Source of the DNA: a virus
Taxonomy: Duplodnaviria > Heunggongvirae > Uroviricota > Caudoviricetes
Length of the DNA: 64,000 nucleotides
Strand: one strand, 5' to 3'
IMG/VR virus record: IMGVR_UViG_2541047715_000004
Both the position numbers and the translations under genes were made by a program. Positions 3,137-42,842 of this stretch are shown piece after piece (the stretch's first letter is position 1; every line of letters begins with the position of its first letter). The notes beneath the pieces are model-generated. The model had not been told where the DNA came from. It searched no databases and saw nothing but the letters and a program-made list of their open reading frames with translations.

Positions 3137-3967
3137 ATGAAGAAAGGTTTACTTGCAGTTGCTCTGGCGGCTATTTGCACAATGGGTCTTACTGGCTGTG
3201 ATCGCGTGGAGCCTGGATACGTTGGCATCAAAGTAAACAAATTAGGTGAAGACAAAGGGATTGGTGAAGTGGTTGGCGTTGGTCGCCAATGGACAGGTCT
3301 TAACACCGAACTTTACGTATTCCCGACCTTCAAACAAATGAAGACCTACGACGAGCCGTTCACATTCCAGATGAGTGACGGTACTGCTATTGGTCACAAA
3401 ATTGGCGTTGCGTATCTGGTTAATCGTGACAAGGTAACGACGGTGTTCCAGACCTATCGCAAAGGCGTAGACGATATCACCGAATCAGATCTGCGTCAGA
3501 AAATTGCCGACTCTCTAAACCGTTTGGCCAGCCGTATGACCACTGACTCATTTATCGACGGTGGTAAGGCACAATTGCTGGACAACGCACTGAAAGATAT
3601 TCAGAAAGAGATGTCTCCGGTTGGTATTGAGGTACTGAGCCTGTCATGGGTTGGAAAGCCTGATTACCCAAAAACTGTCATTGAATCTATTAACGCCAAA
3701 GTAACGGCTAACCAGCGTACTCTGCAACGTCAGCAGGAAGTTGAACAACGTAAAGCTGAGGCGAATATGCTACGTGAACAGGCTAATGGTGAAGCTGATG
3801 CTATCCGTGCTCGTGCGCAAGCAGAAGCAGACGCCATTCGTCTGCGCGGTGAAGCTCTGCGTCAAAACCCGAACGTTATGGAACTGGAAGCCATCAATAA
3901 ATGGAATGGCCAGTTACCGCAGTACATGACTCAAGGGGCTAACACTCCTTTCATTACAGTGAAATAA
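3137..3967 (+). CDS. SPFH/band-7 domain lipoprotein
   Basis: Signal peptide with lipobox LTGC; central region and C-terminal coiled-coil (EADAIRARAQAEADAIRLRGEA) typical of SPFH family. Confidence 0.65.
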   Translation: MKKGLLAVALAAICTMGLTGCDRVEPGYVGIKVNKLGEDKGIGEVVGVGRQWTGLNTELYVFPTFKQMKTYDEPFTFQMSDGTAIGHKIGVAYLVNRDKVTTVFQTYRKGVDDITESDLRQKIADSLNRLASRMTTDSFIDGGKAQLLDNALKDIQKEMSPVGIEVLSLSWVGKPDYPKTVIESINAKVTANQRTLQRQQEVEQRKAEANMLREQANGEADAIRARAQAEADAIRLRGEALRQNPNVMELEAINKWNGQLPQYMTQGANTPFITVK

Positions 3968-28614: not shown

Positions 28615-31600
28615 CTATATCTGCCCACCTACTCCTTTGAACTTTTCAATAAACGTGACGATTTTCTGGAAAACGGTCTGTTTTTTCGTTTTATATTGCG
28701 GGTTTAACGGACTAAGTTTTGGTAATGTCTCGTTTAATTCTGTGCCATTTTCGGTGGCGTATTCGCGTTTTAAAGACGTGCGAATATAGCGTTTCGCCGC
28801 CTCTTCATTGAGATTTTCTTCTTTTATCAATGCTTCTGCTTCACGTTGCTGTTCGCGTTGAGCAAACGTAAAGAATGCCTCAATGATACTGGCTTTGTCT
28901 GGTAAATCATCCAGGTTCGTTTGCTGAATAAAATCGACCACCAGGCCCTCTTTCGCCCGGTTCCCCAGGCTTGAACGAATTAAGCGTTTGACCTCTTCGA
29001 TCATTTCGCCCTTGCCTTTATTTTGTCTGTTGTGTTCGAAAATCAGTCCAAGGATATAATCCAGGTTTATTTCCTGAGACTTCAGCAAATCGACCTCAAA
29101 AACTACGTCATCCCAGTCAGTGGTTGATTTCTCTTTTTTCTCAGCTTCTTTCTCACGGCGCTGCCAGTCGCGAATATCGTTATAGGCAGAACGATAATCC
29201 TGAATCTTGCGTTCAGCAGGGAGACGAATTGTTTGCAATTCAGCGAACTTTTCATCATCCACATAATGTTCTGCTTTGAATTTTTCTACCGCAACAGGAT
29301 CGCTAAGATCGATTTGTTGCAGGGCTTTCAGCGTGGCAAATTCATCATAGTTTTGCAGGATGTTCTCGGCACGCAGGTATTCACCAAACAGTTTTACGAA
29401 GTCTTTCTTCTCTTTTTCACTTTCAATACTGGCAGGGTCAGGGAACCGTTGTTCCAGTTCTGAAACTACTGCCATAAAGCCGCGTTTAGCTTCACCAGTG
29501 GCAGCATCTGTAAAGCCTTCCATATACTCAGCATAACTCTTTTCTAACACCACATTTTTAGTATTTTTATCACCAAACAGCGTTATGGCATCAATGGTTG
29601 AGCGTTCCAGATCCCGAAAAGTGACGATGTTACCGAAGGTTTTAGTAGCGTCATAAATGCGGTTGGTACGGGAGAATGCCTGCATCAGGCCGTGAAAACG
29701 CAAGTTTTTATCGACGAATAGCGTGTTCAATGTTGGAGCGTCGAAGCCGGTTAAAAACATCCCAACGACAATTAACAGATCGATATCCTGATTTTTAACC
29801 CGTTGGGCTAAATCACGATAGTAGTTCTGAAAACCGTTACTGTCGGTGCTGAAGTTAGTTTTAAAATAGCTGTTATACTCACGAATTGCAGCGTCAAGAA
29901 ACTCTTTAGCACTGCTGTCCATTGCGCTGGTATCAAAAGTTTCATCGGAAATTTCACCAATGGCATTTTGTTCTTCATTGGCGGCAAAGGAGAAGATTGT
30001 TGCAACACGCAGCGGTTTATAGGTAGCCGATTTATTAGCTGCTTCCTCTTGTAACCGTTTAAACGTCGCGTAATAGGCTTTCGCGGCATCCACGCTACTC
30101 ACTGCCAGCATGGCATTAAAGCCTTTGGAACCTGGGAAAGTACGGTGGGTCTTCTGGCGGAAGTTATTCAGAATATATTGCGTAATTTCCTGTATACGCA
30201 TGGGATGAAGAAATGCCTGCTGATTTTCAGCCGCACTCAGTTTTTTCTCGTCGGTTTCTGTCTCTAAAGATTTAAACTGTGGCCGCACATCGTTGTAGTC
30301 CACCTTGAATTTGAGCACTTTTTCATCACGAATCGCATCGGTAATTACATACGAATGCAATTCACGACCAAATACGCTGGCGGTCGTTTCTGAGCCTAAG
30401 GCGTTTTCCGGGAAAATAGGTGTGCCGGTAAAACCAAACTGATAATAGCGTTTGAATTTCTTCTTCAGGTTTTTCTGCGCTTCTCCAAACTGGCTGCGGT
30501 GACATTCATCAAATATAAACACCACTTGCTGATTGTATACAGGCAGGTCGCTTTCTGCTTTCATCAGGTTATTAAGTTTCTGAATAGTGGTGACGATAAT
30601 TTTGTTATCGTCCTTATCCAGATTGCGTTTAAGACCTGCGGTATTTTCCGAGCCGTTGACGCTGTCTGGCGAAAAACGCTTATATTCATTCATGGTCTGG
30701 TAATCGAGGTCTTTCCTGTCGACCACGAAGAAGACTTTATCAATAAAGTCCAGCTCTGTTGCCAGACGCGCGGCTTTAAAGCTGGTGAGGGTTTTACCTG
30801 AACCGGTAGTGTGCCAGATATACCCACCGCTTTCCGGTTTTGACCAGTTCTTCGCTGTAAAGGAACTCTTAATTTTCCACAGAATGCGCTCAGTGGCGGC
30901 AATCTGGTACGGTCGCATCACCAGTAGCGTTTGGCTAACATCGAATACGCTGTAGTTCACTAAGACATTAAGCAGGGTATGTTTCTGGAAAAAGGTGGCG
31001 GTAAAGTCTTTGAGGTCTTTAATCAGCGTGTTGTCTGATTTCGCCCAATTCATGGTGAAGTCAAAACTGTTTTTATCGCGCTTTGTCGTGTTGGCAAAGT
31101 AACGGGTATCGGTGCCGTTGGAAATGACAAACAGTTGCAGATACTTAAACAGAGAATTTTCGCTGTTAAAACTCTCTTTGCTGTAACGATGTATCTGGTT
31201 AAAGGCCTCACGAATCGCCACGCCGCGCTTTTTCAGTTCGATTTGTACCAGCGGTAAGCCATTAACCAGGATCGTGACGTCATAACGGTTAGCATGAGAA
31301 CCCGTCTGTTCAAACTGCTGGATAATCTGCACCTTGTTGCGCATGAGATTCTTTTTATCTATCAAATAGATGTTCTCAAGACGCTCGTCATCAAAAATAA
31401 AGTCGCAAATATAGTCGATATGGATTTTACGGGTCTTATCCAGGATGCCATCGCTCGGGTTATCCAGATACTGCTCCGTGAAACGCCGCCATTCGCTGTC
31501 ATTAAACACCACACCATTGAGGTTCTGAAGCTGTTCCCGAACGTTGGCCAGCATCGCCGACTGAGATTTTACGGAAATAAATTCATAGCCCTGATTCCGC

Positions 31601-31731
31601 AGATCCTGAATCAGTTCACGTTCCAGGTCCGATTCGCTCTGGTAGCTGTCGCCTGTTTGCTCGGCTTTGATGTACTTATCAAGAACGATAAAGTTATTGG
31701 ATTCAGCAATGGTGTGTGTCTGATGAGTCAT
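28615..31731 (-). CDS. hsdR: type I restriction enzyme R subunit (type IC, EcoR124-like)
   Basis: 1038 aa; N-terminus [22 protein letters not shown] matches my recollection of EcoR124I HsdR; helicase motifs [16 protein letters not shown]. Confidence 0.9.
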
Positions 31732-31852
31732 AGCGCATCCTTTGTGCCGTCTGGCAAGGGCCGGAAGGGCTTTAAGGGCGACTTCCGGCGTGTAAAAAAT
31801 AGTCTCTATATAGACCGGATGTTAAGGTGATCCGGTCGGTAGCAATGGTCAA

Positions 31853-33100
31853 TTAGTTACTGATAGTTTCAGGTTTGGGAAAACTGAACAGTAAATCACG
31901 ATAGTACTCGTATTGTTTCTGGCGCAACTCGATTTCACGCGGAAGACCTTCGGTGATGGAATTGGTCAAAGCATCAAATTTATCCAGTAATTTCACTATT
32001 TTTTGTTGTTCAACTAGCGATCTTTCAGGAGAATCAGGAAATGGTACTGGTATCATAAGTTTTCTTAAGTTATCATTATAAAGTCTTTTAATAGTTCCAC
32101 CTTCAGATATTCCCCATTTTGCTATTTTATAGAAATAGAATAAATATTTATTTAAAACTATTTTTTCATTATTTTCAATCCAGACAATATTGCTATCCTG
32201 GAAATATGATTCCCTACCATCAAATATAACAGTCCTGCCGATGGTCCCACTGGCAGAAATCAATACTTCGCCAACTTTAGGATAACTATATTTTTCTTTA
32301 AATTCATTAAATAGTTTTCTAGATATATAGGAATCGGGTTCCTTACCAAATGTCCCAATTTTATAAAATGGAATCTCTCCCTCAGAAGATGTTTGTGATT
32401 TTAGGATTCGTTTACACATACGAACTTCACCAATTTCCCCCAAAGCTTTCCACTCAACCTCACCCTCTTTAAAACTCAACAACTGGTCGCGATAGTAGTT
32501 GTATTGTTTTTTACGCATGCTAAGCTCAGCGGTAAGCTCAGCGGTAAGTGCAGTAAATTTATCCAGAATCCTGACGATTTCAGACTGGATAGCCAGCGAC
32601 TTTTCCGGGTTGTTGGGGCAAGGGATGGGGATAAGTAATTTACCTATATCTTTAGCATACAAATGATAAACAGTAGAACCTTTAACCATTTGCAATATCT
32701 TTTTTTTGTTATTTATTATGAAATTACTTAGATATCTACCATCAACACCAGAGCATCTAATAATCAAAATATCGCCGCCTAAAATAACGCCACTTTCTTG
32801 AATGCAACTAGCTGTAGCCAAACCTCTTGGTGTAACGTCTGACGTTGGCATTAGAACATCATTTTTTTCAGATAGAATTGACTCATTGATTGCTTGGTTT
32901 GTTTTTGAGCATACTTTGTCAATTATGGGACCATAATGAGTGAAAAGCTCACCGTAATGAATACAATATCTATTGCCATCTGGAGTTATTTTTTCTTTAG
33001 GTAAAGACTTCCCTTTTAAAAAAGTTGCTAATTTATTTAATGCTACCCACTCAACCTCAGCCCCATCCAGCAGTTTTTCCAGATAACTCAGCTCGCTCAT
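31853..33100 (-). CDS. hsdS: type I restriction-modification specificity subunit (type IC)
   Basis: Two target-recognition domains separated by conserved central region containing TAELTAEL; conserved C-terminal [22 protein letters not shown]. Confidence 0.9.
32522..32545 (-). repeat. 2 x 12-bp tandem repeat encoding TAEL-TAEL in hsdS central conserved region
   Basis: aagctcagcggt repeated twice on + strand (ACCGCTGAGCTT on coding strand). Confidence 0.85.
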
Positions 33101-34659
33101 GCCTGTACCTCGCTACCTTCAATCTCAGCAACAATCGCATCAATATCTTTACGCAACTGGTCGATTTTGCTGACCGTGGTTTTCAGCTCAGCATTCAGCT
33201 CAGCGATATCGATAATTTCGCGAGTATCTTTCGCTTCCACATAGCTGCTCACCGACAGGTTATAGTCATTCGCGACAACAGTCTCAAACGCAACAGATTT
33301 CGCCAGATGAGCAACATCTTCCTTGCTGGCAAATACCTGCATAATCTGTTCGATATGAGCATCGGTCAGAATGTTGTTGTTAGTCTCTTTTTTGAACAGT
33401 TCGCTGGCATCAATAAACTGAACTTTGGTATCCGTTTTATGTTTAGACAGCACCAGAATATTGACGGCAATAGTGGTGCCAAAGAACAGATTCGGTGCCA
33501 GTGAAATCACGGTTTCGACATAGTTATTGTCGACCAGATACTGACGGATTTTCTGCTCCGCGCCGCCACGGTAAAAAATGCCTGGGAAGCAGACAATCGC
33601 AGCGCGACCTTTGGCCGAAAGATAGTTCAGCGCATGTAATACAAACGCAAAGTCAGCTTTGGATTTGGGGGCCAGAACGCCAGCCGGGGCAAAACGTTCA
33701 TCGTTAATCAGCGTCGGGTCATCGCTGCCAATCCATTTCACCGAATACGGCGGGTTAGAAACGATGGCATCAAACGGTTTTTCATCTCTGAAGTGCGGCT
33801 CAGTCAGTGTATTACCCAGCTTGATATCAAACTTGTCGTAGTTGATGTTGTGCAAAAACATGTTCATACGCGCCAGGTTATAGGTCGTATGGTTGATTTC
33901 CTGACCAAAAAAACCTTCTTCGATGATATGGTCATCAAACTGTTTTTTCGCCTGCAACAACAGCGAACCGGAGCCTGCTGCCGGGTCGTAGATTTTGTTA
34001 ACGTGGGTCTGCCCGTGCATAGCCAGTTGTGCAATCAGCTTAGAGACGTGCTGCGGTGTAAAGAACTCGCCGCCGGACTTACCGGCATTCGCCGCATAGT
34101 TAGAAATCAGGAACTCATAGGCGTCACCGAACAGGTCAATCTGATGTTCATGGAAGTCACCAAGTTTTAGCCCTTCAACCCCTTTCAGAACCGCAGCCAA
34201 GCGGGCATTTTTATCTTTAACGGTGTTACCCAGGCGGTTACTGGTGGTATCGAAATCAGCAAACAAACCTTTGATGTCAGCTTCTGAAGGATAACCGTAA
34301 GCAGAACTTTCGATAGCAACGAAGATGCTGTTTAAATCTGCATTCAGTCTGTCATTAGTATTTGCTTTCGCAGCTACGTTGCAGAAAAGCTGACTGGGGT
34401 AGATGAAGTAGCCTTTAGTTTTGATGGCATCGTCTTTAATGTCATCAGTAATTACGCTGTCATCCAGTTTCGCATAACAGATACTGTCATCACCGGCTTC
34501 AATATAACTGGAAAAATTTTCGCTGATAAAACGGTAAAAAAGCGCGCCCAAAACGTACTGCTTAAAATCCCATCCATCGACTGAACCCCTGACATCGTTA
34601 GCAATTTGCCAGATCTGGCGATGAAGCTCTGCACGTTGTTGAATACTTGTCATTTTCAT
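33097..34659 (-). CDS. hsdM: type I restriction-modification methyltransferase subunit
   Basis: N6-adenine MTase motifs including NPPYS; stop overlaps hsdS start (ATGA). Confidence 0.9.
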
Positions 34660-35011: not shown

Positions 35012-35263
35012 ATGAGCAACTGGAACATAGCAGCCAAAAGCCAGGAAGAAAGGAATAAAGTTAACGTTGACCTGGCTGCCAGGGGGGTTGCCTACAAAGA
35101 GCGATTGAACATACCCGTCATAGCGGAACAGGTAGCCCGTGAGCAACCTGAGAACCTGCGCACCTATTTCATGGAACGGCTACGGCACTACCGGCAGTTA
35201 AGCCTCCTGCTGCCAAAAGGAAACGATCCGGTATATCAGAAAGAAGATATAGCCAAAAAATAA
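35012..35263 (+). CDS. hypothetical protein
   Basis: 83-aa ORF upstream of the LexA box. Confidence 0.35.
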
Positions 35264-35323
35264 CGCGCCACCAGACGAGCGCAAAGCATCGCGCTATTGC
35301 ACACTTCAAGCATCTTTAATGTA

Positions 35324-35343
35324 TACTGTATGGATAAACAGTA
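35324..35343 (+). promoter_or_regulatory. LexA (SOS) box
   Basis: TACTGTATGGATAAACAGTA fits CTGT-N8-ACAG consensus, 19 bp upstream of the umuD-like start. Confidence 0.8.
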
Positions 35344-35361
35344 CTCTGAGGTGAAAACGCT

Positions 35362-35751
35362 ATGGGCTTCCCTTCTCCTGCGGCGGATTATGCTGAGAGC
35401 CGTATTTCTCTTGATCAGCAGATAATTAGACATCCTTCAGCGACCTACTTCATGAGGGCAGCTGATAGTCATCATCGTGAGGGAATATTACAGGGTGCAT
35501 TGCTGGTGGTCGATTCCTCACTTACCCCGGTTGATGGTTCTCTGCTTGTATGCGCTCTGGATGGGGAATATCGCGTAAAAAGATACCGGAAGTACCCACG
35601 TCAGCATCTGGAGGATTTAAGAACCGGTAAGAAGGAAGCATTGCCAAAGGATGACGATGGATGCACGGGCAGCAATGCCGTGTTTGGTGTGATCACTCAC
35701 ATTATCAACGACGCAAGAAGTGGCGAGTTTGATGATTGTCCCGTGATGTAG
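35362..35751 (+). CDS. UmuD'/HumD-like S24 peptidase-fold protein lacking the N-terminal arm
   Basis: Begins MGFPSPAADYAE, equivalent to E. coli UmuD residues right after the Cys24-Gly25 autocleavage site; no umuC partner follows. Confidence 0.65.
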   Translation: MGFPSPAADYAESRISLDQQIIRHPSATYFMRAADSHHREGILQGALLVVDSSLTPVDGSLLVCALDGEYRVKRYRKYPRQHLEDLRTGKKEALPKDDDGCTGSNAVFGVITHIINDARSGEFDDCPVM

Positions 35752-35762
35752 GAGAACTGATT

Positions 35763-35788
35763 AGGCGGTGCAATGCACCGCCTTTTAT
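35763..35788. terminator. bidirectional terminator hairpin
   Basis: Hairpin aggcggtgc-aat-gcaccgcct with T-run, between convergent umuD-like and mrp genes. Confidence 0.55.
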
Positions 35789-36888
35789 CACACTGCGCGG
35801 AATGCGATTTCGCCAGGTATTACTTCACCTTGCCAATACATTTGGGCGGCAACGCGATCTGCGAGGTCACGATAAATAGCCGTAAATTCGCTATCTGGAC
35901 GACTAATAACGGTTGGTGTTCCGTTATCCAGATCTTCACGAAGAGAGATATGAAGTGGCATTTGGCCTAACAACTGCGTGTTGTATTTCTCGGCCAGTTT
36001 CTGTGCGCCACCGGTGCCAAAAATTGGCTCGTGATGACCGCAGTTACTGCAAATATGCACACTCATGTTTTCGACGATACCCAGTACCGGCACTTCGACT
36101 TTTTCGAACATCACAATGCCTTTCTTCGCATCGATCAGCGCGATGTCTTGCGGCGTAGTTACCACAACCGCACCAGTTACAGGAATGTTCTGCGCCAGCG
36201 TCAACTGAATATCACCAGTGCCCGGCGGCATATCGAGAACGAGATAGTCCAGATCAGGCCATAGAGTTTCCTGCAACATCTGCATCAGCGCCTTGCTGGC
36301 CATCGGTCCACGCCACACCATTGCATTGTCGTCGGTGACCAGATAACCAATAGAGTTGGTTGCCAGGCCATGAGACATGATAGGTGCCATGTGAGTACCG
36401 TCAGGTGAGGTTGGACGTTGGTTTTCCGCGCCCAGCATGGTTGGAATTGATGGACCATAGATATCGGCATCCAAAATACCAACTTTCGCACCTTCAGCAG
36501 CCAACGCCAGTGCCAGGTTTACCGCCGTGGAGGATTTACCCACGCCGCCCTTGCCTGAGCTGACGGCGATAATGTTCTTAACGCCATTAATGCCTGGTTG
36601 GTTTTTGACGCGCTTAAGCGTGGCAATGTTGTACGACAGCTTCCAGTCAATAGCCTTTGCGCCAGTGATACGGAGCAGATCACCACTACATTGCTCTTTC
36701 AGGTCTTCAAAAGGCTTATTCCACACGAAAGGCATGATTAGTTCGACATGCAGTGTGTCATCCATCAACGCAACATGGTGTAACGCTTTAAGCGTAGTCA
36801 GGTTGTGTTTCAGGGTTGGGTGCTGAAAATTAGCCAGCGTACCGGCTACCATTGCTCTCAGGGCATCCGGCGATTTGGACTCGCTCAT
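35788..36888 (-). CDS. apbC: iron-sulfur cluster carrier ATPase Mrp/ApbC
   Basis: Deviant Walker A SGKGGVGKSS, CxxC motif ICSNCGHH; divergent from metG as in E. coli. Confidence 0.9.
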   Translation of the reverse strand: MSESKSPDALRAMVAGTLANFQHPTLKHNLTTLKALHHVALMDDTLHVELIMPFVWNKPFEDLKEQCSGDLLRITGAKAIDWKLSYNIATLKRVKNQPGINGVKNIIAVSSGKGGVGKSSTAVNLALALAAEGAKVGILDADIYGPSIPTMLGAENQRPTSPDGTHMAPIMSHGLATNSIGYLVTDDNAMVWRGPMASKALMQMLQETLWPDLDYLVLDMPPGTGDIQLTLAQNIPVTGAVVVTTPQDIALIDAKKGIVMFEKVEVPVLGIVENMSVHICSNCGHHEPIFGTGGAQKLAEKYNTQLLGQMPLHISLREDLDNGTPTVISRPDSEFTAIYRDLADRVAAQMYWQGEVIPGEIAFRAV

Positions 36889-37045
36889 CCCGTCTCCTTT
36901 ATTTTAATTTGCGCAATTGTCGCCTTGTAGTGTACTCCAGCTACGACATTTAATCATTTATGAGAAATGCTGTTATCACATGGCAGACATAAGGCCATTT
37001 TGTTACTATCAAGCCCCTTTTCACTACAAAGAAGTAATGCCTACT

Positions 37046-39079
37046 ATGACCCAAGTCGCGAAGAAAATTCTGGTGACGTGCGCGCTGCCGTACGCTAACG
37101 GCTCAATCCACCTCGGCCATATGCTGGAGCACATCCAGGCTGATGTCTGGGTTCGTTACCAGCGAATGCGCGGCCACGAGGTTAATTTCATCTGTGCCGA
37201 CGATGCCCACGGTACGCCGATCATGCTGAAAGCACAGCAGCTTGGTATCACACCGGAGCAGATGATTGGCGAAATGAGTCAGGAACACCAGACTGATTTC
37301 GCAGGCTTTAACATCAGCTATGACAACTATCACTCGACGCACAGCGAAGAGAACCGCCAGCTGTCTGAGCTTATCTATACTCGCCTGAAAGAGAACGGTT
37401 TTATTAAAAACCGCACTATCTCTCAGTTGTACGACCCGGAAAAAGGCATGTTCCTGCCGGATCGTTTTGTGAAAGGCACCTGCCCGAAATGTAAAGCGCC
37501 AGATCAATACGGCGATAACTGTGAAGTCTGCGGCGCAACATATAGCCCGACTGAATTGATCGAGCCGAAATCGGTGGTTTCTGGCGCTACCCCGGTAATG
37601 CGTGATTCCGAACACTTCTTCTTTGATCTGCCTTCTTTCAGCGAAATGTTGCAGGCATGGACCCGCAGCGGCGCGTTGCAGGAGCAGGTGGCGAACAAAA
37701 TGCAGGAATGGTTTGAATCCGGCCTGCAACAGTGGGATATCTCCCGAGATGCGCCTTACTTCGGTTTTGAAATTCCGAACGCGCCGGGCAAATATTTCTA
37801 CGTCTGGCTGGACGCGCCGATTGGCTACATGGGTTCCTTCAAGAATCTGTGCGACAAACGCGGCGACACTACCAGCTTCGACGAATACTGGAAGAAAGAC
37901 TCCACCGCCGAGCTGTACCACTTCATCGGTAAAGATATCGTTTACTTCCACAGCCTGTTCTGGCCTGCCATGCTGGAAGGCAGCAACTTCCGCAAGCCGA
38001 CCAACCTGTTTGTTCACGGCTATGTGACGGTGAACGGCGCGAAGATGTCCAAGTCTCGCGGCACCTTTATTAAAGCCAGCACCTGGCTGAATCATTTTGA
38101 CGCCGACAGCCTGCGTTACTACTACACTGCGAAACTCTCTTCGCGCATTGATGATATCGATCTCAACCTGGAAGATTTTGTTCAGCGCGTGAATGCCGAT
38201 ATCGTGAACAAAGTGGTTAACCTGGCCTCCCGTAATGCAGGTTTTATCAACAAACGTTTTGACGGCGTGCTGGCAAGCGAACTGGCTGACCCGCAACTGT
38301 ACAAAACCTTCACTGATGCCGCTGAAGTGATTGGTGAAGCGTGGGAAAGCCGCGAATTTGGCAAAGCTATCCGTGAAATCATGTCACTGGCTGACCTGGC
38401 TAACCGCTATGTTGATGAACAGGCTCCGTGGGTGGTGGCGAAGCAGGAAGGCCGCGATGCCGACCTGCAGGCGATTTGCTCTATGGGCATTAACCTGTTC
38501 CGCGTGCTGATGACGTACCTGAAACCGGTACTGCCGAAACTGACTGAACGTGCAGAAGCATTCCTGAATACAGAACTGACCTGGGATGGTATCCAGCAAC
38601 CGCTGCTGGGCCATAAAGTGAATCCGTTCAAGGCACTGTATAACCGTATCGATATGAAACAGGTGGAAGCACTGGTGGAAGCATCCAAAGAAGAAGTGAA
38701 AGCCACAGCTGCACAGGTAACTGGCCCACTGGCTGACGACCCGATTCAGGAAACCATCACCTTTGACGACTTCGCCAAAGTTGACCTGCGTGTGGCGCTG
38801 ATTGAAAACGCGGAGTTTGTCGAAGGTTCTGACAAACTGCTGCGTCTGACACTGGATCTCGGTGGTGAAAAGCGTAATGTCTTCTCAGGCATCCGTTCTG
38901 CTTATCCAGACCCACAGGCACTGATTGGTCGTCACACCATTATGGTGGCTAACCTGGCTCCGCGTAAAATGCGCTTCGGTATCTCCGAAGGCATGGTGAT
39001 GGCTGCTGGCCCCGGCGGGAAAGATATCTTCCTGTTAAGCCCGGATGCTGGTGCTAAACCAGGCCACCAGGTTAAGTAA
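37046..39079 (+). CDS. metG: methionyl-tRNA synthetase
   Basis: 677 aa, near-identical in pattern to E. coli MetG (HIGH motif [13 protein letters not shown], zinc knuckles CPKC...CEVC); true start ATG 37046 inside the longer listed ORF. Confidence 0.95.
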
Positions 39080-42530: not shown

Positions 42531-42842
42531 ATGAAAAAATCATTGGTTCTTGGTCTGGACAAAGACCAGAAGAGAAAAGAGAAGCCTGCGCTGGTTGCTC
42601 AATTAACTTTGCTGGACATCGTTGCCAATGGAACCTCTATTCGTCTGTTCCGTGAAACAGCGGTGTCTTTCGATAAAAACACCTTTACTCGTTATGTAAT
42701 GAATGTTCGTCGCCAGCGTGGAAAAGGCTGGATGGCATTTCAAAGAATGTGGCCGGAACATCAGCTCGAACTGGCTTTGATGGAAGTTAACCGCGTGGCC
42801 CAGCAAGAAATTCAGAGAGCATCAGTGATGGCAATAGCCTGA
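42531..42842 (+). CDS. hypothetical protein
   Basis: Start taken at MKKSLVLG with GGAG RBS. Confidence 0.45.
   Translation: MKKSLVLGLDKDQKRKEKPALVAQLTLLDIVANGTSIRLFRETAVSFDKNTFTRYVMNVRRQRGKGWMAFQRMWPEHQLELALMEVNRVAQQEIQRASVMAIA

Follow-up and report, generated by a model that had tools for sequence, protein, structure and literature searches.

Sequence comparison identified a gene in the 64,000-nucleotide stretch of DNA analysed here (the window) as humD, the orthologue of phage P1 HumD. The gene very probably provides a ready-made UmuD' under SOS control, which makes use of the UmuC protein of the host and is carried by a phage-plasmid of the SSU5/pLF82 type. The HumD gene is already known: the family was described in 1999 for P1, a curated equivalog model is available and the identical RefSeq protein is named HumD. 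The initial annotation of this DNA had described a stand-alone gene under LexA control whose UmuD'-like product is pre-truncated as in P1 HumD, a description borne out by the full-length match to the equivalog model, the identity of approximately 92% to P1 HumD, the operator and the absence of umuC.

The humD open reading frame, which begins MGFPSPAADYAES, encodes a protein of 129 aa with the N-terminus MGFPSPAADY, located at the position of Gly25 of UmuD. The nearest in-frame stop codon upstream is a TGA at 35347-35349, 5 codons ahead of the humD ATG; an N-terminal arm is therefore impossible for HumD. This stop codon, together with the alignment of Gly2 of HumD to Gly25 of UmuD (see below), confirmed that the protein starts at the position of processed UmuD' and is without the arm, as had been claimed earlier. 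The features of the region are listed in Table 1.

Table 1. Features of the humD region, in window positions.
Feature	Position	Strand	Basis
Type I restriction-modification operon hsdR-hsdS-hsdM	28615-34659	-	hsdR 1038 aa, hsdS 415 aa, hsdM 520 aa
hot, theta subunit homologue of DNA polymerase III	35012-35263	+	PF06440, 107.9 bits; PRK10969, 97.6 bits; aligns with P1 Hot
Promoter-like sigma-70 site TGCACA-18 nt-TATACT	35298-35327	+	Predicted; consensus scan, 9/12
LexA operator (SOS box) TACTGTATGGATAAACAGTA	35324-35343		Predicted; 17/20 match to consensus; P1-equivalent position
Shine-Dalgarno-like GAGGTG	35348-35353	+	Sequence; overlapped by the in-frame TGA at 35347-35349
humD, pre-truncated UmuD'-like, S24 domain only	35362-35751	+	NF051876, PF00717, 1UMU, P1 HumD
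Intrinsic-terminator-like hairpin	35763-35787	+	RNA folding; between the convergent humD and apbC
apbC ('mrp')	35788-36888	-	Convergent with humD

The NCBIfam equivalog model NF051876, 'HumD family translesion DNA polymerase', matched the protein over its full length (residues 1-129 of 129) with 219.8 bits, the cutoff being 120. Residues 1-80 of HumD matched the Pfam model PF00717, Peptidase_S24, with 37.9 bits against a cutoff of 23.3, and the PHROGs assignment was 'UmuD-like protein'. The model of the UmuD subfamily, NF007621, gave 87 bits only, below its cutoff of 110; HumD has neither an arm with the Cys24-Gly25 site nor an operon with umuC.

UmuD and UmuD' are represented in the PDB by the entries 1UMU, 1I4V and 1AY9. 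The best matches among solved structures were the UmuD' chains of E. coli (1UMU, E = 6.7e-23, HumD residues 2-118). In the alignment with 1UMU, Gly2 of HumD is paired with Gly25 of UmuD and the match continues to the end of the UmuD' domain; it spans the whole S24 domain of the UmuD' structures, which suggests that the S24 fold has been kept. Ser36 (35467-35469) and Lys73 (35578-35580) of HumD occupy the positions of the catalytic dyad Ser60/Lys97 of UmuD. A structure model obtained with AlphaFold2 from 68 HumD-family sequences (67-91% identical) was unusable (mean pLDDT of 45.4, pTM of 0.33), likely due to the shallow alignment, and the fold of HumD was therefore assigned by sequence homology to the solved UmuD'.

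Comparison with UmuD of E. coli strain MG1655 gave 41 identical residues out of 74 (55%) over residues 2-75 of HumD and 8 out of 36 (22%) over residues 76-115, the latter region containing in addition a 4-residue insertion. Only 4 of the last 14 HumD residues can be aligned, 1 of them being identical, and the other 10 lie beyond the end of UmuD. The divergence of the C-terminal half from E. coli UmuD, pointed out in the initial annotation, is thus accounted for by the low identity over residues 76-115 and by an essentially unmatched terminus. E. coli UmuD has an N-terminal arm of 24 residues, a cleavage site and an operon with umuC, whereas HumD is without all three; the features in common with UmuD' are the S24 C-terminal domain, the Ser and Lys positions and a start at the post-cleavage Gly25.

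The LexA box upstream from humD is a 20-bp palindrome that shares 17 of 20 positions with the E. coli consensus, TACTGTATATATATACAGTA. No other site of this quality is present in the 64 kb, and none was obtained in any of 100 dinucleotide-preserving shuffles. A search with the looser core CTGT-N8-ACAG gave two sites in the window, a number reached by 17 of 100 shuffles, so the core alone is not significant. The second core site, at 42645, was dismissed as a chance occurrence: it has no TA flanks and appears to lie within coding sequence. The box ends 18 nt ahead of the humD ATG, and its position is that of the LexA site in the P1 annotation. The consensus SOS box reported ahead of the gene was in this way corroborated by its quality, its uniqueness and its position. 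The box of the E. coli umuDC operon, TACTGTATATAAAAACAGTA, is similar in sequence and layout and ends 21 nt ahead of the ATG.

A -10-like hexamer overlaps the LexA box. It belongs to a putative promoter, a single sigma-70-like site with 9 of 12 matches, which is no more than the chance expectation in this region; the hexamer, at 35322-35327, shares the first 4 bases of the box. Downstream from humD, RNA folding recovered a hairpin with a 9-bp stem and a 3-nt loop followed by TTTT (-20.3 kcal/mol, z = -4.31), and none of 200 shuffles folded as well. A simple terminator scan gave no call at this hairpin.

When E. coli UmuC was compared by tblastn with the window and with the complete matching reference plasmid pMB5646_2, no homologue could be found (best E = 0.72), and the annotation of this plasmid, with 122 features, contains no Y-family polymerase. 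These results agree with the earlier statement that the gene stands without umuC. Of 5426 complete E. coli genomes, 5423 have umuC on the chromosome. The catalytic subunit would therefore nearly always be supplied by the host, whose umuC is itself controlled by LexA.

A tblastn search against phage genomes showed 100% identity to a gene of Cyrano, 91-93% to humD of P1, RCS47, SJ46 and D6, and 60-71% to the UmuD-like genes of phiKO2, N15, HK140 and HK639; remoter matches were found in Aeromonas and Hafnia phages. HumD of P1 (AAQ14181) has likewise 129 aa and is about 92% identical (91% in one alignment) over 129 of 129 residues. It has the same MGFPSPAADY start and the tail SGEFDDCPV(M/I), and its gene has hot upstream and no umuC. 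As in the window, the LexA box of P1 humD is located about 38-39 nt upstream of the ATG; the boxes coincide in the DNA alignment, and the stretch from the Shine-Dalgarno sequence to the ATG, TGAGGTGAAAACGCTATG, is identical. The GenBank record of P1 has, 20 nt ahead of the start, an entry for a 'LexA binding site in the regulatory region of lxr and humD', and its note on HumD reads 'DNA repair; functionally complements E. coli UmuD''. In SOS mutagenesis, P1 HumD has been shown to take the place of UmuD' (McLenigan et al. 1999, J Bacteriol 181:7005, as cited in PMC7092418, PMC4713147 and the P1 record), and PMC7092418 characterises P1 HumD as a shorter form of UmuD that is already activated.

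The two loci differ in their surroundings. In P1 a divergent gene, lxr (190 aa, 'LexA regulated function'), is located between hot and humD and shares the LexA site. Some 640 bp, among them lxr, are missing from the window; since lxr is absent, hot is directly adjacent to humD, ending 98 bp upstream of it on the same strand. In the comparison of 35264-35323 with positions 3248-3960 of the P1 region, approximately 50 bp of unrelated sequence stand in the place of lxr. For the P1 lxr product, no Pfam match was obtained, only PHROG families of unknown function. The promoters annotated in P1 also differ, hot being assigned a late promoter and humD a LexA site. Downstream from humD, P1 carries phd-doc, whereas the window carries the convergent apbC and then metG. 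The P1 replicon, too, differs from that of the window, which is SSU5-like.

The protein encoded by CYRAN_98 of Cyrano (pLF82, OV696614; E. coli LF82) is 100% identical to the window HumD; the gene is followed by the same apbC-metG pair and is carried by the same type of phage-plasmid. Cyrano has neither hot nor lxr upstream, and both its operator, TACTGTATGTGTATACAGTA, which contains a different spacer, and its ribosome-binding region differ from those of the window. The similarity between the window and Cyrano begins essentially at the humD start codon. Recombination breakpoints are placed at this codon because Cyrano lacks hot and lxr upstream of an identical humD. Judging from these alignments, the window locus joins a coding sequence of the Cyrano type to hot, operator and leader of the P1 type, a case of ordinary phage-plasmid mosaicism.

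The products N15 gp26, phiKO2 gp23 and HK140 gp28 are 64-73% identical to HumD. All three are pre-truncated, have an upstream LexA box, the conserved tail and no umuC, and their catalytic serine is replaced by threonine. In these three phages the humD homologue is located after the tail-fibre genes; its neighbour in phiKO2 and HK140 is a divergent dinI, and the two share the operator region. In the phiKO2 locus (2181-2482) the annotated LexA site is common to the humD homologue and dinI, and in HK140 (1910-2262) the LexA-type box at -282 of humD is found between humD and dinI. The humD homologue and dinI are, in phiKO2 and HK140, a two-gene SOS-modulating moron.

Nine humD loci were compared: those of the window, P1, Cyrano, N15, phiKO2, HK140, HK639, Aeromonas pAEv1818 and Hafnia yong1. 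An upstream LexA-type box, CTG-N10-CAG, is present in all nine. In seven of them it is located at -34 to -41 from the start codon; the box of phiKO2 is at -64, and that of HK140, at -282, precedes a small ORF upstream of the gene. MGFPSP is the N-terminus of eight of the nine proteins, the Aeromonas protein beginning with MGMPKFASP. No adjacent umuC was found at the humD loci of the phages compared. The Ser/Lys dyad is present in HumD of the window and of P1. The serine is Thr, Gln or Tyr in N15, phiKO2, HK140, HK639, pAEv1818 and yong1, and the lysine is Met or Arg in three of the proteins. The aligned sequences thus suggest that the dyad is under no family-wide constraint in HumD, which fits a protein that no longer needs self-cleavage.

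Between the humD genes of the window and P1, 43.8 synonymous and 12.2 non-synonymous differences were counted (dS of approximately 0.80, dN of 0.042). The resulting dN/dS of 0.05 indicates strong purifying selection. In a large protein collection, 561 clusters matched HumD at E <= 1e-5. Among the 120 of these clusters that were listed, 106 begin with MGFPSP and have the same architecture of 125-131 aa, most being 126-130 aa long, and many bear the NCBI/UniRef name 'HumD family translesion DNA polymerase'. In PLSDB, proteins with 90% or more identity to HumD are encoded by about 640 plasmids. A separate observation was made on the IncX3 plasmid pMTC948 (2759-3357), which encodes an S24 protein of 118 aa with 48% identity to residues 1-115 of HumD. 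Its gene is preceded by a 79-aa ORF, as in the two-gene layout of HK140, its 3' end abuts IS26 and the product has no tail of the HumD type; IS26 may have truncated it.

The C-terminal residues of HumD essentially without counterpart in UmuD, NDARSGEFDDCPVM (residues 116-129, window positions 35707-35748), form a tail specific to the HumD family. Its family form is ND[AM]RSGEFDDCPV[MIL], and EFDDCPVM is almost invariant among the 120 closest clusters. The core E-[F/W]-D-D-x-P-[V/C]-[M/I/L] is kept even in the Aeromonas and Hafnia phage proteins, which are 46-49% identical to HumD. In the window protein the tail ends in GEFDDCPVM (residues 121-129), which is acidic with a hydrophobic end. The conservation of this HumD-only tail may be a detail that has not been described before. 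The tail resembles the acidic C-terminal tip of SSB (DFDDDIPF). It is conceivable, if rather doubtful, that it acts as a docking peptide giving HumD an activity beyond the replacement of UmuD', for example by binding to the pockets of replisome or repair proteins that receive the SSB tail, or to the replicase of the phage-plasmid.

Many E. coli plasmids with a size of about 110 kb contain the 1.1-kb region around humD at 100% identity. The window could be mapped, reverse-complemented, to pMB5646_2 (NZ_CP103659.1, 109.6 kb) in five colinear blocks of 97-99.8% identity, with the exception of one 2.1-kb block of approximately 90% identity and two short unmatched gaps. This plasmid carries genes for RepB, ParB, terminase, portal, capsid, tape-measure and tail proteins and four tRNAs. 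It also has a replication set (dnaE, 3'-5' exonuclease, theta/Hot, DnaB-like helicase, primase, ATP-dependent ligase and RNase HI) and a nucleotide-metabolism set (nrdAB, thyA and dfrA51, which codes for the trimethoprim-resistant dihydrofolate reductase DfrA51). An ORF of 779 aa for a LAGLIDADG homing endonuclease was found in the same plasmid. Cyrano (pLF82) is an SSU5-like phage-plasmid that produces siphovirus particles (PMC9928086). By its sequence, the replicon of the window is an SSU5-like E. coli phage-plasmid as well.

The pair of apbC and metG, the latter coding for methionyl-tRNA synthetase, occupies 35788-39079. It is full length and approximately 90% identical to the chromosomal pair that all E. 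coli genomes possess, and 222 plasmid places with the pair were counted among complete E. coli genomes. These identities mark the plasmid pair as a captured second copy of two housekeeping genes. With this captured copy the region could be taken for chromosomal, and the chromosomal origin implied by the name 'mrp' was ruled out when the window mapped to pMB5646_2. The gene called mrp was correctly placed downstream of humD on the other strand; what lies there, 36 nt past humD, is however not its start but the 3' end of apbC. On the other side of humD, the complete hsdR-hsdS-hsdM operon is located immediately upstream of hot. According to the P1 GenBank record, the flanks of the pmgT-to-doc region match those of the plasmid-borne EcoDXXI and R124 hsd loci. 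It may be that type I systems insert recurrently in the neighbourhood of hot and humD.

From the sequence of the window locus we infer LexA binding, SOS induction and partnering with UmuC, and from the orthology to the 92%-identical P1 HumD we infer that the window HumD complements UmuD'. In undamaged cells, as the sequence and the P1 annotation suggest, host LexA bound to the operator would cover the -10/transcription start region and keep humD off. DNA damage would activate RecA, leading to self-cleavage of LexA and transcription of humD into a presumably monocistronic message ending at the hairpin downstream of the gene. The product, which already has the length of RecA-processed UmuD', would skip the slow RecA-dependent self-cleavage that delays the activation of Pol V. 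Like UmuD', HumD is expected to dimerise and to bind the SOS-induced UmuC of the host, forming an active Pol V-like translesion polymerase. The outcome would be earlier or greater lesion bypass and SOS mutagenesis for both host and episome.

The low identity to UmuD in the C-terminal third (22%) and the family-specific tail of 14 residues count against the reading of HumD as a UmuD' that works with host UmuC. In an alternative reading, HumD acts together with Hot on the Pol III core, that of the host or that of the phage-plasmid, and modulates it after damage, perhaps by slowing replication or by switching polymerases, the role of UmuC being minor. Binding partners of UmuD and UmuD' include the alpha, epsilon and beta subunits of Pol III. 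The genes hot and humD are neighbours both in the window and in P1, and the reference plasmid has its own DNA polymerase III alpha subunit, 3'-5' exonuclease, DnaB-like helicase and primase. However, no hot is adjacent to the humD genes of Cyrano, N15, phiKO2, HK140, HK639, pAEv1818 and yong1, and in the P1 annotation hot has a late promoter but humD a LexA site. Moreover, HumD of P1 replaces UmuD' in SOS mutagenesis (P1 record; PMC7092418). A function exerted mainly on Pol III is, on this evidence, unlikely.

It is less likely still that HumD is an active S24 peptidase or a LexA-like regulator, cleaving itself or other proteins or repressing phage genes, although Ser36 and Lys73 are located at the dyad positions and homologues are named 'S24 family peptidase' or 'LexA family transcriptional regulator' in several sources. 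The protein has no DNA-binding domain: the LexA repressor model TIGR00498 gave 27.2 bits, far below its cutoff of 110.95, and the match was restricted to profile positions 91-166, corresponding to the C-terminal domain. A Cys-Gly or Ala-Gly cleavage site is missing, as the N-terminus of HumD lies beyond that point, and other HumD members have exchanged the serine for Thr, Gln or Tyr and, in three cases, the lysine for Met or Arg. The lack of the N-terminal arm and of umuC would also be seen in a decaying remnant of umuDC, a functionless pseudogene truncated at its 5' end, and truncated umuD remnants do occur on other plasmids, for instance beside IS26 on IncX3 plasmids. This reading has almost no probability left and was rejected on the basis of dN/dS and of the family-wide conservation: a dN/dS of 0.05 against P1 humD, at a dS of approximately 0.8, and the same 125-131-aa MGFPSP architecture in 106 of the 120 listed clusters are not those of a truncated pseudogene. 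Furthermore, humD matches the equivalog model over its full length and has its own predicted Shine-Dalgarno sequence, operator and terminator.

The reading of humD as a pre-activated UmuD' that works with host UmuC has its main use in the correct annotation of the gene, and the locus adds no new principle. SSU5-like E. coli phage-plasmids would join P1, N15 and lambdoid phages as carriers of a pre-activated UmuD' under SOS control that needs the UmuC of the host. Such a widespread mobile shortcut to error-prone polymerase activity would bear on stress-induced mutagenesis in clinical E. coli.
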